NCBI GenBank assembly: GCA_035278125.1
Contig: DATEJJ010000852.1
Coordinates: forward strand, 757-64,756
DNA from: Rugosimonospora sp.
GTDB taxonomy: Bacteria; Actinomycetota; Actinomycetes; Mycobacteriales; Micromonosporaceae
DNA: 64,000 nucleotides
Reading direction: 5' to 3'
In this document: positions 181 through 23,519 of the stretch, piece after piece
Layout: every line of letters begins with the position of its first letter
Numbering within the stretch: position 1 is the stretch's first letter
Position numbers and translations under genes: made by a program
Notes under the pieces: model-generated
What the model saw: the letters and a program-made list of their open reading frames with translations, nothing else
Database searches by the model: none
What the model was told of the DNA's origin: nothing

Positions 181-2373
181 TCAGCCGTCATCCGCACCCA
201 CTCCGGAAGGATAACGGTCCCGCCGGCCGGCGACCCGGTGCGACCGGACCGGCACCATGTCCCAGGCGATACGTCCCGAGGCGAGCGTCAGCAGGAACAC
301 CAGATCCCGGGACTCGAAGCCCGGCGGCAGATCAGCCTCGAAGCCGCCGGGCCGCCGGGCCAGCGGACAGGTATACCGGTTGCCCCGGCCGGTATCGGGG
401 CCCTGTACCGAGTCGAGGATGAGATCCACCCGGTCGGCGTGCGGGAAGCGGTACGTGACCCGGTATCCGCCGCCGCCCGCTCGTACCCGGCACCGCTCCG
501 CCACCAGCGCGCGGGAGTCCGGGCCGGCCAGTTCCGCGAGCTCCGCACAGCGTTCGAAGTCGGCGCGGCGGTAGGCGGCGTCGAAGAGCCGCCGCACCGA
601 CGCGGCGTCGACCACGGCACAGCGTGCGTACACGTCCAGATCCCCGCGCTCCCGGGCCGCCTCGGCCACCCGGGCCCGCTGGGCCGTCCATCCGCTCTCA
701 CTGACCCGGTCGAACCAGCCGCTGTCGATGGCGAAGGCATCGGCCTCAGCACCCGCCCCGACCGGCGGCCCGGCGCGGAACCGCTCCAGGCGGCGCCCGG
801 CACACCGCTCCCACGTGAAGCTCCGGCCCACCTCCCGAGCGTTGCGCGACAACCGCCGGTAGGTCGCTGGGTCGTGCCGGAAAATGTCGACCGCGTGCTC
901 GATCGCGGTGACCAGGTTGGCGACCAGGCGCTCGTCCTTCGCCCGGAACGACCGTGGTACGGCGAAGCCGGTGGCCGCCGGATCCGACAGGGGCAGGGTG
1001 CAGCGGTAGTGGGTGAACGTCTGTTGGGCCGTGATGATGGGCACCGTGCCGCAGGCCATCGCCTCACCGAGCGCGATATGGAACGTGTCGAGTTCGAACT
1101 TGGACGGGAAAACGCAGAAGTCGGCCGCGGCGGCCTCATCGAAGAGGGCCTCCTCGTCGACCATGTTCCAGTCCAGGTACACGCGGCCCGGGTACCGGTC
1201 GGCGACCTCCTGGAAGTACGGGACGGCGGCCGAGGCGCGTACCGCGCCCGTGCCAACCGCGCACCGGATGACGAAGTTCAGGCCGGGGTCGTCGGCGAGA
1301 ACCCGATCCACCGCGCGCATGAGCTCGAACTGGCCCTTGTGGTTCTGGTCGAGGCGGGCCGCGTGGTAGAAGGTGGGGAGGCGCGCGTCCAGTCCACGCT
1401 CGGCGAGAACCCGGCTACGGTCCACTGTGGACGGATCGCGGGCCAGCCACCAGTCCGGCAGGGCACACCCGCCGACGAACTGCTTGTGGGCCGTCTCCTT
1501 GACGATGCGGGAGACGGTCCACCGCTCGAACCCGCGCTCCGACGGCGCGTCCCGGAAGGTGGAGTAGTACTGTCGCTGGCCCGGGGACAGGAAGTCGATG
1601 ATGTCGGTGTAGGCCGCCACCAGCGAGAAGTAGCAGGTGTAGTCGGGTCCGTAGTCAAACTGCCGGTAGGACGGGCGCAGGTAGTTGGCCATCGCGGTGT
1701 CCAGCGCGTCGCCCGGCGGCGGATCAGCGAACCGGTCGAGGTCGACGGTGGTGGAGAACATCCGCAGCAGGCGTTCGAGCTGCGGCCGGTACACCTTCTC
1801 GTTGATGGGTGAGTTGAGCGCGACGGTGCTGACGAGGGTACGGCCGGGCACACCACCCAGGACGGCTGGGAGCAGGTAGTGGTGGTAGGGCTCGTGGCAG
1901 TGTACGACCCCGGGCTCTCCGGCGAGCAGCCGCTCCACGAGGCGGACGGCGTCGACCTGGAACACCATCGGCTTGAAGTAGGCGAAATCGGTGCCGTGCG
2001 TCTCGTTGTCCGGGTAGAGCCGGTCGGGCAGCAGGTCGAGGTACTCGTTGGCCAGGAAGTAGATGTCCACGCCGTCCCGGCGGAGCAGGAATACCCGGGT
2101 GGACAAGGCGAGCGTCAACTCGACCGGATGGTCCGGCCACACCTTCGGATCGAGCACCAGCGGTACCGCGTGCGCTTCCCGGTACGGCAGTTCGCGCGCG
2201 CCGTACCGGTCCACCAGGTAGTCCGCGTGGCCGTGGGCCGGCGTGATCAGAGATACCCGGTGTCCGGTGGCCGCGTACTGCTGGGCCAGGTGCCACACGA
2301 GAGTGGCCGCACCGCCGCGCTTGAGCCGCCCGTCGAAGGCTATCGACTCGAAGGCGACCTTCACGATATGCAT
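181..2373 (-). CDS. Glycogen-synthase-like GT-B glycosyltransferase with ~230 aa C-terminal extension (AcbS/AcbI-like), paralog 1
   Basis: ORF 181..2532(-). Start moved to ATG 2373 (MHIVKVAFES), which matches the N-termini of paralogs 2 and 3. Motifs: HCHEPYHHY, FPSKFELDTF, GEAMACG. Overlaps the upstream gene stop by 13 nt. Confidence 0.85.
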   Translation of the reverse strand: MHIVKVAFESIAFDGRLKRGGAATLVWHLAQQYAATGHRVSLITPAHGHADYLVDRYGARELPYREAHAVPLVLDPKVWPDHPVELTLALSTRVFLLRRDGVDIYFLANEYLDLLPDRLYPDNETHGTDFAYFKPMVFQVDAVRLVERLLAGEPGVVHCHEPYHHYLLPAVLGGVPGRTLVSTVALNSPINEKVYRPQLERLLRMFSTTVDLDRFADPPPGDALDTAMANYLRPSYRQFDYGPDYTCYFSLVAAYTDIIDFLSPGQRQYYSTFRDAPSERGFERWTVSRIVKETAHKQFVGGCALPDWWLARDPSTVDRSRVLAERGLDARLPTFYHAARLDQNHKGQFELMRAVDRVLADDPGLNFVIRCAVGTGAVRASAAVPYFQEVADRYPGRVYLDWNMVDEEALFDEAAAADFCVFPSKFELDTFHIALGEAMACGTVPIITAQQTFTHYRCTLPLSDPAATGFAVPRSFRAKDERLVANLVTAIEHAVDIFRHDPATYRRLSRNAREVGRSFTWERCAGRRLERFRAGPPVGAGAEADAFAIDSGWFDRVSESGWTAQRARVAEAARERGDLDVYARCAVVDAASVRRLFDAAYRRADFERCAELAELAGPDSRALVAERCRVRAGGGGYRVTYRFPHADRVDLILDSVQGPDTGRGNRYTCPLARRPGGFEADLPPGFESRDLVFLLTLASGRIAWDMVPVRSHRVAGRRDRYPSGVGADDG

Positions 2374-21377: not shown

Positions 21378-23519
21378 TCAGTTCCGGCCCGGCACGACGG
21401 CGTCCCAGCCGAGGCGCCCGTCGTCGAGCGAGAGGAGAAAACAGAGCGGTCCCACCGGTACCGGTCCCTCGAAGGTACCGACGAAGCTGCCACCCTCCCG
21501 GCTCAGGTACCGCTCCGCCATGGGTACGCCCGGTTGGGCCGGGGACGGGTGGTAGAACAGCAGAACCTGCGCGACGCGCGGAAATGTGTAGCTGACGCGC
21601 CAGCGCCCGCCGTCCTGCTCCACCCGGCACCGGGCCGCGACCGAGGCGGCCAGCCCGACCAACCCGGACTCAGCGGCCAGCCGCTCGCAGGTCACGAAGT
21701 CGGCCCGGTCATAGGCGGACTCGACCAGTTGGCGGAGCGCCGCCCGGTCCGCCTTCCGACACCGGCGCAGCGCGTCGACGTCGCCCAGCGCGATAGCCTG
21801 CCGGGCGATCTCGTCGGCGTGCGCCCGCCAACCGTCCGCGCTGATGCCGTCAAACCAGCCGTACCTGATCGCGTCCACATCGGACACCGCGTTGGTGAAC
21901 GTACCCCGGACGACCGCGCGGTACACGTGCAGGTGCCGGCGTGCCGCGCGGTCCCAGGTGAACCCCCGGGCGACGGTCATCGCGTTGCGCCGTAACCGCG
22001 CATACTTCTCCGGCTGCTCACGGAGCACCGACAGCGCGTCCAGGAGGCGGTCGACCAGATCGCTGACCAGTTGCGGATCCTCACCACGGAACGACCGGCG
22101 CAGGGCGAACCCGGTAGCCATCGGGGCATCCGTGTCGAACATGTGCCCCAGGTGGCTGGTCATCTGCTGAAGGGTGCCGATCGGTACGGCACCGCACATC
22201 ATCGCCTCGGCCTGGGACAGCAGGAACGTATCCAGTTCGTACTTGGACGGGTAGACGCAGAAGTCCGAAGCGGCGGCGTGCTGGAACAGCACCCGGGGCG
22301 GCGCCATCGTCCACTCCAAACGGATGTTGTCCGGGTACCCGCGCGCGATCTCCAGGAAGGACGCGTTGCCGACCTCCCCACCTGATTCCGTACCGTTTCC
22401 GGTGACGCAGCGGATGATGAAGTTCACCTGCCGGTCAGTCGCCAGCACCCGGTCGACCGCGCCCATCAGCTCGATCTGACCCTTCTGGCCCGGCGCGTAC
22501 CGGGCCGCGTGGTAGAACGTCGGGAAGGCCGGGTCCAGGCCGAGCGACGTCAGCACCTCCTCCCGCTTGACCTCCTCGGGCACACCGTCCCGCCACTCCG
22601 CGGAGATCCCGCACCCACTCACGAAGTACCGGTGCGCGCTCGCCTTCACGGTCCGCGCCACCGGCAACGTGTCGCGGAACGGCTCCAGCGGTGTATCCCG
22701 GAACGTCATGTAGAAGTCTCGGTGGGCCTCGGAGAGGAAGTCCACCGCGGCACTGTTCGAGGTGACGAGGGGCAGGATCGGTACGTAGCCGGGGCGCCCG
22801 TGGTCCAGTAGCCGGGTACGGCGGAGGGCACCGCGCATGAGTTCGTCCAGCGCCGTCGCCGGGGCCGGATCGGTCAACTCGTCGAGATGCGCGTCGAGGC
22901 CGAGAAGGTCGAGAACCGCTTCGAGCTGTGGGCGGTATACCGCCTTGTTGATGGGCATGTTGCTGTTGATGGTGCTGACCAGGTGCTGGCTCGGGTGCTC
23001 GCGCAGCGCCAGTGCCAGCAGGTAGTGGTAGAAGGGCTCGTGAGCGTGCACGACGAGTTCCTGGTCGCGCCAGTACCGCTTGATGAATTCGACACAGTCG
23101 ATCTGGAAGACCAGAGACTTGAAGTAGCTCAGGTCGCGGCCTTCGTCGGTCCAGGACGGATAAATCTTGTCGGGGAACCGATCGAGATAGTCATTTGACA
23201 GCAGATAGATGTCCAACCCACCATGGCGGATCCGGTGCGCGGAGGTGGTCAGCGCGACCGTGAGCGCGCCCGGAGAATCGGGCCAGACGTCGGGATCCAA
23301 CCGCAGCGGAAGCTCATAGCTGGAGACATAGTCGAGCCGCTCGACCTCGTGGTCCTTCCGGAGATAGGGCAGCGCGCCGTGGGCCGGAGTGAGGAACGAG
23401 ACACGATTGCCCCGCCTCGCGAATTCGAGCGCGAGGCTCCACGAGTGTACGGAGATCCCACCGACCTTGAGGCGCTCGTCCAGCCCACCACACTCGAACG
23501 CACACTCGACAACATGCAT
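21378..23519 (-). CDS. Glycogen-synthase-like GT-B glycosyltransferase with C-terminal extension, paralog 3
   Basis: Starts MHVVECAFECGGLDERL. Motifs: HAHEPFYHY, YPSKYELDTF, AEAMMCG. C-terminal GWFDGISADGW...LLSLDDGRLGWDAV. Confidence 0.85.
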   Translation of the reverse strand: MHVVECAFECGGLDERLKVGGISVHSWSLALEFARRGNRVSFLTPAHGALPYLRKDHEVERLDYVSSYELPLRLDPDVWPDSPGALTVALTTSAHRIRHGGLDIYLLSNDYLDRFPDKIYPSWTDEGRDLSYFKSLVFQIDCVEFIKRYWRDQELVVHAHEPFYHYLLALALREHPSQHLVSTINSNMPINKAVYRPQLEAVLDLLGLDAHLDELTDPAPATALDELMRGALRRTRLLDHGRPGYVPILPLVTSNSAAVDFLSEAHRDFYMTFRDTPLEPFRDTLPVARTVKASAHRYFVSGCGISAEWRDGVPEEVKREEVLTSLGLDPAFPTFYHAARYAPGQKGQIELMGAVDRVLATDRQVNFIIRCVTGNGTESGGEVGNASFLEIARGYPDNIRLEWTMAPPRVLFQHAAASDFCVYPSKYELDTFLLSQAEAMMCGAVPIGTLQQMTSHLGHMFDTDAPMATGFALRRSFRGEDPQLVSDLVDRLLDALSVLREQPEKYARLRRNAMTVARGFTWDRAARRHLHVYRAVVRGTFTNAVSDVDAIRYGWFDGISADGWRAHADEIARQAIALGDVDALRRCRKADRAALRQLVESAYDRADFVTCERLAAESGLVGLAASVAARCRVEQDGGRWRVSYTFPRVAQVLLFYHPSPAQPGVPMAERYLSREGGSFVGTFEGPVPVGPLCFLLSLDDGRLGWDAVVPGRN

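Follow-up and report, generated by a model that had tools for sequence, protein, structure and literature searches.

Three AcbS/AcbI-family paralogs, one of them in a third clade, in a probable acarbose-like gene cluster of Rugosimonospora sp.

Acarbose-type pseudo-oligosaccharides are clinically used as alpha-glucosidase inhibitors. The logic of their assembly, which employs one glycosyltransferase and one homologous pseudoglycosyltransferase, was worked out only in 2022 (PMC9200736). As reported by Tsunoda et al., AcbI is a true glycosyltransferase that makes 4-amino-4,6-dideoxyglucosyl-maltose, and AcbS, which is 42.5% identical to AcbI, is a pseudoglycosyltransferase that couples guanosine diphosphate (GDP)-valienol to that amine (PMC9200736). 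The corresponding proteins GacS and GacI comprise 699 and 1028 amino acids (aa), respectively (supplement of PMC9200736). We here describe three genes of this kind, G1, G2 and G3, in a stretch of 64,000 nucleotides (nt) from Rugosimonospora sp. (assembly GCA_035278125.1, contig DATEJJ010000852.1, positions 757 to 64,756). This whole stretch, called the window below, is high-GC actinomycete DNA with about 70% guanine plus cytosine (GC).

The best overall explanation of our findings is that G2 is of the AcbS type, G1 of the AcbI type and G3 an extra transferase, all in an acarbose-like cluster. We give this explanation a probability of roughly 0.7. Homology, clade placement, synteny, conserved residues and a predicted fold are what the analysis establishes; the activities of the three enzymes, co-transcription and the role of the common tail are inferred.

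Three members of the AcbS/AcbI family

All three genes lie on the minus strand, exactly where the initial annotation had placed them (Table 1). Their starts were set by the MH(I/V)(I/V) that is typical of the family; the N-termini read MHIV in G1, MHII in G2 and MHVV in G3. The paralogy claimed for them is confirmed: the proteins align from end to end with pairwise identities of 43-46% over the full length and a mean column identity of 66%, which is far beyond chance. The motifs quoted for them are all there. The HEP motif appears as HEPYHHY in G1 and as HEPFYHY in G2 and G3, (F/Y)PSK(F/Y)E(L/M)DTF as FPSKFELDTF in G1 and YPSKYELDTF in G3, and GWFD..S..GW as well as FLL(T/S)L..GR..WD.V run through G1, G2 and G3. 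A small deviation concerns RADF..CE, which ends in CE in G2 and G3, but in CA in G1 (RADFERCA). Pfam recognizes the two halves of a glycosyltransferase (GT)-B fold in each protein (Glyco_transf_5, Glyco_transf_4, Glyco_trans_1_4) and finds no domain past about residue 535.

Full-length comparison makes G1-G3 members of the AcbS/AcbI family, i.e., retaining GT-B enzymes that are distantly related to the GT5 glycogen synthases. They are homologous to AcbS/GacS and AcbI/GacI over about 700 aa, the C-terminal module included. They have the GT-B fold, as modelled for G3, and all three have the donor-site Arg, Lys and Glu. Their cluster contains an AcbC-like cyclase and an AcbR-like nucleotidyltransferase, and the context of a cyclase and a cyclitol nucleotidyltransferase is a family criterion that we took from the literature (PMC9200736). 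A search of 5.8 billion proteins returned, as top homologs, proteins of about 700 aa or versions of about 1000 aa with an extra C-terminal HAD domain. They cover 99-100% of the query with E ≤ 1e-150; their hosts are Streptomyces, Kitasatospora, Actinoplanes, Micromonospora and others, and the S. glaucescens proteins are among them. All close homologs of G1-G3 sit in cyclitol clusters. Homology to GT20 (Glyco_transf_20) was not seen in G1-G3, for which Pfam gave GT5/GT4-type domains only.

The weak matches to Pfam Glyco_transf_5 and to the NCBIfam GlgA models, together with GH13 and GlgE-like genes close by, might suggest for G1-G3 a housekeeping role as glycogen or alpha-glucan synthases whose genes were duplicated beside those of starch metabolism. 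The GlgA scores, however, are only 46-64 bits and stay below all cut-offs (at least 328 bits): TIGR02095 gave 49-64 bits with a cut-off of 328, and the GlgA equivalog models gave at most 46 bits with cut-offs of 459-870. Because these scores are so far under the cut-offs, G1-G3 are not considered housekeeping glycogen synthases. Also, every close homolog resides in a cyclitol cluster, the AcbS/AcbI family does not conserve the KTGGL Lys, and glycogen synthases do not have the tail. A housekeeping function is thus extremely improbable. The initial annotation had described the proteins as glycogen-synthase-like and related them to acarbose biosynthesis; they are indeed GT5-like and lie in an acarbose-type cluster. 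Its statement that acarbose needs two such enzymes, a true glycosyltransferase and a pseudoglycosyltransferase that forms a C-N bond, agrees with the published roles of AcbI and AcbS (PMC9200736). Clustering with housekeeping glycogen or alpha-glucan synthases, which it had named as a possible refutation, did not occur.

The family splits into clades, two of which can be anchored by the published primers: that for acbS encodes MHIIETYF, that for acbI encodes MHVVSFA (supplement of PMC9200736). The two copies of Actinoplanes sandaracinus start with MHIIETYFECGG (MHIIETYF) and (M/V)HVVSLAFE. They match the N-termini encoded by the primers and thereby identify clade S and clade I. The main tree was built by neighbour-joining from 58 sequences and 673 columns with 200 bootstraps, and a larger neighbour-joining tree agrees with it. 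Clade S (bootstrap 100) unites the A. sandaracinus AcbS ortholog, GacS (P0064) and G2, the only one of the three paralogs in this clade. G1 lies outside clade S; it falls into clade I, which has a bootstrap of 96 and also holds the AcbI ortholog of A. sandaracinus as well as all HAD-fused GacI-type proteins. Within this clade G1 is grouped with P0019 and P0031 (bootstrap 99). G3 belongs to neither and forms clade III with P0002 and P0003 (bootstrap 97). This was the tree check that the initial annotation had proposed, and it sorts the three copies as the AcbS/GacS clade (G2), the AcbI/GacI clade (G1) and neither of them (G3). By their placement in the tree, G1 and G2 are new members of the known AcbI and AcbS clades.

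Single residues tell a similar story. At 16 alignment positions that discriminate S from I, G2 has the S residue 15 times and G1 the I residue 12 times, while G3 follows I at eight positions, S at four and neither at the remaining four. The N-terminus of G2, MHIIEHYF, is to be compared with the MHIIETYF encoded by the acbS primer; that of G1 resembles the A. sandaracinus AcbI ortholog and the primer-encoded MHVVSFA. A few residues of G1 are atypical for clade I, namely H160, K18, T430 and R474.

Clade III is rare. The 5.8 billion proteins contain four members, which are G3, P0002, P0003 and P0151; the last one, from soil metagenomes, was the sole further member that a clade III profile detected. 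Domain-wise identities place clade III no closer to S than to I, whichever domain is compared, and G3 has the longest branch.

Catalytic core and C-terminal tail

Residues were mapped by alignment to the glycogen synthases of P. abyssi and E. coli (GlgA of strain MG1655). R300, K305 and E377 of the E. coli enzyme correspond to R340, K346 and E427 (G1 numbering), which are invariant in all three paralogs. D137 becomes the invariant E161 of HxHEP, and G17/G18 become G20/G21; these, too, are kept in G1-G3. The donor site of G3 accordingly reads R340/K346/E428 with GG20-21. A loss of catalytic residues on proper alignment, the other finding that was to speak against the initial annotation, is not what we see: Arg, Lys and Glu are kept throughout. 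In the KTGGL or KxGG loop the GG pair is invariant, and the Lys that is equivalent to E. coli Lys15 is found in G1 and G3 and replaced by Val in G2. This Lys18 occurs in G1 and G3 only; the other family members compared (about 115) have M, L, I or V instead.

AlphaFold2, run on full-length G3 with an alignment of 61 sequences, yielded a model with a predicted local distance difference test (pLDDT) value of 92.1 and a predicted template modelling (TM) score of 0.91. The best Foldseek match of its core was P. abyssi glycogen synthase (E = 8e-22, TM score 0.77 for the target); starch synthases and the E. coli glycogen synthase were also found.

One candidate for donor specificity was discarded. 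His160 of the family had been considered the equivalent of His161 in the E. coli glycogen synthase, an O6 ligand that would predict 6-deoxy or 6-hydroxy donors. It is His in 43 of 43 members of clade S and Phe in the GacI-type proteins. The idea was rejected because HxHEP aligns with H134-A-H136-D137-W of the E. coli enzyme; His161 aligns to a Ser or Leu before the invariant N187.

The tail that follows the core had been estimated at about 230 aa. In fact the GT-B core extends to about residue 538 in the AlphaFold2 model, and the tail that G1-G3 have in common, and that is part of every family member, measures about 170-190 aa. Modelled alone (pLDDT 93.3) or within the full-length protein, it comprises a helical subdomain and a beta-sandwich. 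The ending in a beta-sandwich, foreseen in the initial annotation, thus holds as an AlphaFold2 prediction of eight strands. According to these models the fold of the tail is a helical subdomain plus an Ig-like beta-sandwich and is specific to the family. A tail profile retrieved 32 matches from 1.84 billion representative proteins. All but one were family members or fragments thereof, with the tail at about residues 535-710; the lone outsider, a protein of 1063 aa with 11 short repeated matches, is probably spurious. Searching the sequences of the PDB with the tail produced nothing but helical-repeat noise. The main text of the AcbS/AcbI paper does not mention the tail; the term "C-terminal" never occurs in it (PMC9200736).

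The resemblance of the sandwich to the glycogen-binding CBM48/E-set domains, as claimed in the same annotation, did not stand up well. In Foldseek, the sandwich alone aligned, over 80-90 columns, and the best E values were 1e-3 to 1e-2, none of them better than 1e-3. The matches comprised the glycopeptidase Amuc_1438, CBM56, the N-domain of TVAII, pullulanases, SpuA and FnIII domains, and among these FnIII and CBM56 score as well as the others. A true CBM48/E-set module, sharing its descent with those found in pullulanases, branching enzymes and AMPK-beta, would be in line with the predicted eight-stranded sandwich, with the action of several of the best matches on alpha-glucans (TVAII, pullulanases, SpuA, Amy12) and with malto-oligosaccharides as likely acceptors. 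Pfam, however, found nothing relevant in the tails of G1-G3 at E ≤ 10, in particular no CBM_48, an hhalign comparison with the N-domain of the GH13 enzyme from this cluster gave a probability of 0.4%, and the exhaustive profile search met no outside protein save the spurious-looking repeat match. A relationship by descent to CBM48 is therefore doubtful. A carbohydrate-binding role of the tail is plausible from the modelled fold, and probably it aids the binding of the oligosaccharide acceptor or mediates assembly. Being present in every family member, yet absent from Pfam and PDB, it merits structural and binding work.

Roles proposed for G1, G2 and G3

G1 is the predicted true glycosyltransferase. 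By analogy to AcbI/GacI, it would build the amino-oligosaccharide acceptor from a nucleoside diphosphate (NDP)-aminosugar and a malto-oligosaccharide. Its donor may differ from that of AcbI, since the part of the window that was annotated showed neither a synthase for deoxythymidine diphosphate (dTDP)-glucose nor a 4,6-dehydratase (AcbA/AcbB-like). G2 is predicted, again by analogy, to couple an NDP-cyclitol, which in acarbose is GDP-valienol, to the amino-oligosaccharide via a non-glycosidic C-N bond. G3, an old divergent paralog, would add one more NDP-activated unit in a retaining transfer, and the product would then differ from acarbose. Such a further transfer is the most likely role of G3 because it keeps the Arg/Lys/Glu set and has a confidently predicted GT-B fold. 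Probably, then, the cluster makes a modified acarbose-like product. The idea of an extra step, put forward in the initial annotation, gains substance with G3 being an extra, apparently competent paralog outside clades S and I.

A number of observations weigh against this explanation. Published activities refer to the Actinoplanes AcbS and AcbI only, whose identity to G1 and G2 is about 50-56%. When the tree is rooted with outgroups (E. coli GlgA and the GlgM-like GT4 of Micromonospora schwarzwaldensis), clade III joins S in 32% and I in 21% of cases. Of 129 positions with a conservation of 95% or more across the family, G3 deviates at 17, compared with 11-12 for G1 and G2. Sequence alignment does not allow equivalents of His161 and Asn246 of the E. 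coli glycogen synthase to be assigned. As the window's left edge cuts through the cluster, its gene inventory is incomplete. Finally, P0003 and P0151 are sole family members beside genes of NDP-cyclitol activation, with no aminotransferase.

The latter point leads to the donor of G3. The odds that it is a sugar are about even, with a slight lean over a cyclitol. G3 leans towards the glycosyltransferases because it carries I-like residues beside the catalytic Arg and Glu (A338 and L429) and matches I at eight discriminating positions and S at four. Clade S has N338 (43/43) and M428 (42/43) there, which are absent from clades I and III. Somewhat less probable is that G3 acts as a second pseudoglycosyltransferase, transferring an NDP-cyclitol to another amine than the nucleophile of G2, or to a hydroxyl with formation of a C-O bond. 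A cyclitol donor for clade III is argued from P0003 (S. cocklensis, L083) and P0151 (metagenomic loci L085-L087): each is the sole family member in a small cluster, no aminotransferase or second family copy is in view, and an NDP-cyclitol made there would need that very enzyme as its consumer. The bootstrap value of 97 for clade III points in the same direction. The GT20-type ValL is reported to form C-O bonds (PMC12041759), and pseudoglycosyltransferase roles have been proposed for unpaired homologs (PMC9200736). G3, however, does not share N338 and M428 with clade S and is I-like at these sites, it is only 49-50% identical to P0003, a distance like that between S and I, the monophyly of clade III falls to 64% on core columns with outgroups, and the window cluster holds a single nucleotidyltransferase and a single aminotransferase. 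If G3 did transfer a cyclitol, the product would have an additional or differently linked cyclitol.

One may also ask if G3 catalyses anything. Its long branch and its deviations, the most numerous of the three and including H345Q, D257A and D318K, could be those of a degenerating or non-catalytic paralog that serves as a scaffold or regulator and contributes no chemical step. Yet none of the deviations touches a mapped catalytic residue, and H345Q produces the QKG motif of the E. coli glycogen synthase. The open reading frame (ORF) is intact and has a coding-type GC content at third codon positions of 0.86; the fold is predicted with high confidence, and an ortholog is kept in the syntenic cluster of M. 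schwarzwaldensis. An inactive G3 is thus quite improbable. More far-reaching, and still rather unlikely, is the proposal that clade III (G3, P0002, P0003, P0151) is a third functional class that makes an undescribed pseudo-oligosaccharide scaffold, with the tail as a new acceptor-binding module. By way of illustration, such a class might place a cyclitol onto a hydroxyl or a second amine, or make a (pseudo)disaccharide-1-phosphate for the GlgE-type maltosyltransferase of the cluster. Were this true, the scaffold made by the window cluster, and by its counterpart in M. schwarzwaldensis, would be one not described so far. We keep to the explanation of G3 as an extra transferase beside an AcbI-type G1 and an AcbS-type G2.

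The cluster and its relatives

The window probably contains the right-hand part of an acarbose-like C7N-aminocyclitol pseudo-oligosaccharide cluster, as judged from its genes (Table 1). A tight minus-strand operon runs from the cyclase-cupin gene via the aminotransferase, G2 and the GlgC-like, ROK and RmlD-like genes to G1 and a PfkB-like kinase. The stop of the RmlD-like gene overlaps the start of G1, and the PfkB-like gene overlaps the stop codon of G1 by 11 nt. The latter gene, beginning with MTADTRVLVLGGTGVDTV, is cut by the window edge, from which it follows that the cluster continues leftward; its product may be an AcbK-like acarbose 7-kinase, to judge from the motif. On either side of G2 lie the genes for the aminotransferase and for the GlgC-like nucleotidyltransferase, an AcbS-like synteny. 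It matches the acb gene order, acbV-(U)-S-R, and the cluster has equivalents of AcbC, V, S, R, M, I and WXY. G3 and the GMC oxidoreductase gene form a separate minus-strand pair, likely co-transcribed in view of their 12-nt spacing on the same strand; it is preceded by a gene for a helix-turn-helix (HTH) protein, which is the probable right-hand border of the cluster.

Table 1. Positions of the three paralogs, their subdomains and the neighbouring genes in the window
Feature	Position	Strand	Remarks
G1	181..2373	-	730 aa; AcbI/GacI-clade member; predicted true glycosyltransferase
G2	5582..7702	-	706 aa; AcbS/GacS-clade member; predicted C-N-forming pseudoglycosyltransferase
G3	21378..23519	-	713 aa; clade III of the AcbS/AcbI family
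Lys18 codon in G1	~2320-2322	-	Lys of the KxGG loop
Lys18 codon in G3	~23466-23468	-	Lys of the KxGG loop
G3 GT-B catalytic core	21906..23519	-	residues 1 to ~538; AlphaFold2 and Foldseek
G1 tail	~184-756	-	
G2 tail	~5585-6091	-	
G3 tail, helical subdomain	21636..21881	-	residues 547-628; carries GWFD and RADF..C
G3 tail, 8-strand beta-sandwich	21396..21629	-	residues 631-708; carries LLLTL..GR..WD
PfkB/ribokinase-like kinase, start	3..191	-	assigned by sequence motif; length insufficient for a family match
ROK-family kinase (AcbM-like) and RmlD-like reductase/epimerase	2361..4753	-	true start of ROK probably near 4489
GlgC-like nucleotidyltransferase (AcbR-like)	4486..5589	-	start overlaps G2 stop by 8 nt
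Class-III aminotransferase (AcbV-like)	7728..9050	-	
DHQS-like sugar phosphate cyclase (AcbC-like) with C-terminal cupin	9022..10701	-	one ORF; cupin possibly an epimerase
ABC-2 type exporter (AcbWXY-like)	10856..13505	+	ATPase and two permeases
Two GH13 enzymes and GlgE-type maltose-1-phosphate maltosyltransferase homolog	13533..18728	+	
MalZ-like GH13 enzyme (amy1)	13533-15347	+	
GlgE homolog	16971-18728	+	585 aa; shortened N-domain; E=3e-195 to mycobacterial GlgE 5cgm
Aldo-keto reductase	18809..19819	+	convergent with GMC gene
GMC-family flavin adenine dinucleotide (FAD) oxidoreductase	19845..21365	-	start 12 nt past G3 stop, same strand
HTH-domain protein	23657..24811	-	upstream of G3; 137-nt gap

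Farther to the right, an unrelated second biosynthetic cluster occupies about 34100-43500 and beyond. It contains a SARP regulator, an ABM monooxygenase, an O-methyltransferase, a fusion of FkbM-methyltransferase and PNPOx and two EryCIII-like GT1 enzymes, the latter in unusually long ORFs of 522 and 691 aa, in which the GT domain begins at residues 147 and 327. Between the two clusters, at about 25600-30700, lie five minus-strand ORFs that have no Pfam match and a lower GC content (0.66-0.68).

The locus was compared with 84 related ones, including those of S. coelicoflavus and Actinoplanes. The core genes are 44-74% identical to counterparts in 76-82 of the 84 loci, and homologs of the aminotransferase (64-74% identity) occur in 76. 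Within 10 kb, each of 80 loci from species-representative genomes shows one or two copies of the family, always one that is G2-like (55-59% identity) and usually one that is like G1 or G3. The three-copy exception that we found is M. schwarzwaldensis (BAAGTP010000015.1). The initial annotation had linked the GMC oxidoreductase to the third copy. As a marker of a third copy it had to be rejected: GMC homologs (58-66% identity) are present in 31 of the 84 loci, nearly all of which have one or two copies in view, and in M. schwarzwaldensis the GMC gene does not adjoin the G3 ortholog. Homologs of the aldo-keto reductase (63-70% identity) are found in 16 of 84. GMC oxidoreductase and aldo-keto reductase thus appear to be recurrent accessories of acarbose-like loci, the role of which in these pathways is apparently undescribed. 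The GlgE homolog and the MalZ-like GH13 enzyme amy1 behave differently. Among the 84 loci the window shares them with the three-copy cluster of M. schwarzwaldensis only, which means that they co-occur with the third paralog.

The small clusters around P0003 and P0151 both contain a GlgC-like nucleotidyltransferase and an AcbJ-like HAD gene. That of S. cocklensis also has a cyclase, and the P0151 contigs, which are from a JGI metagenome, also have NUDIX and MFS genes. These small clusters are candidates for cyclitol conjugates that are made without a dedicated amine.

The window cluster is a variant of the acarbose type, distinguished by the third-clade member, the GlgE-type enzyme and the fusion of cyclase and cupin. 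The literature that was searched contained no paper on three-copy clusters, clade III or the tail. We consider the cluster an incremental lead from genome mining, neither a new principle nor a new kind of system. Still, a rare third and apparently active family member is a concrete lead to a new inhibitor scaffold, and it bears on an enzymological question, namely through which residues a GT5-type glycosyltransferase becomes a pseudoglycosyltransferase that forms C-N bonds. The orthologs lend themselves to direct testing, as they come from a named species, M. schwarzwaldensis, the genome of which has been sequenced.

How, then, does the locus relate to known systems? With the GT5 glycogen synthases (P. 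abyssi glycogen synthase, E. coli GlgA) the AcbS/AcbI family shares the GT-B fold, the Arg/Lys/Glu set, the Gly-Gly loop and HxH(D/E), at an identity of 13-20%. It differs by about 100 extra core residues, by the tail of 170-190 aa, by the general loss of the KTGGL Lys and by its context of secondary metabolism. VldE and ValL of the validamycin pathway offer an analogy, as they also perform a retaining transfer of an NDP-cyclitol to an amine (and, in the case of ValL, to a hydroxyl). They are, however, trehalose-6-phosphate synthase-like members of GT20, and a sequence relationship to G1-G3 was not detected. The Allostreptomyces cluster has a GH77 amylomaltase where the window cluster has the GlgE-type enzyme.

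G1 is in one clade with AcbI and GacI. It is unfused like AcbI, in contrast to the HAD-fused GacI-type proteins of Streptomyces, and belongs to a basal subclade with proteins of M. schwarzwaldensis and Nakamurella. G2 shares with AcbS (Actinoplanes sp. SE50/110) and GacS (S. glaucescens) the clade, the tail, a near-identical N-terminus and the aminotransferase and GlgC-like neighbours (PMC9200736). Its 706 aa compare with 699-709 aa for AcbS/GacS. It is, however, only about 56% identical to the Actinoplanes ortholog, and its gene follows that of the aminotransferase with no AcbU-like gene in between. G1 and G3 have the family architecture in common with AcbS/GacS, but fall outside their clade.

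A three-copy counterpart is the uncharacterised M. schwarzwaldensis cluster. There are differences: the gene order is another one, HAD and NUDIX genes and a GlgM-like GT4 are extra, cyclase and cupin are adjacent separate genes (L082 4509-6064) instead of a fusion, and G3 is only 50% identical to P0002. The GT4 of 395 aa is encoded at L081 15818-17005 (+), beside the genes for the GMC oxidoreductase and the GlgE-like enzyme. Among the NCBIfam models it matches the GlgM-type TIGR02149 best, with 174 bits under a cut-off of 302, and a counterpart was not found among the annotated ORFs at 1-42 kb of the window. Each of G1, G2 and G3 has a one-to-one ortholog in the M. schwarzwaldensis cluster (P0019, P0088 and P0002, respectively), and that cluster shares with the window the cyclase, the cupin, the aminotransferase, the ABC-2 exporter and the nucleotidyltransferase, as well as two GH13 enzymes, the GlgE homolog and the GMC oxidoreductase.

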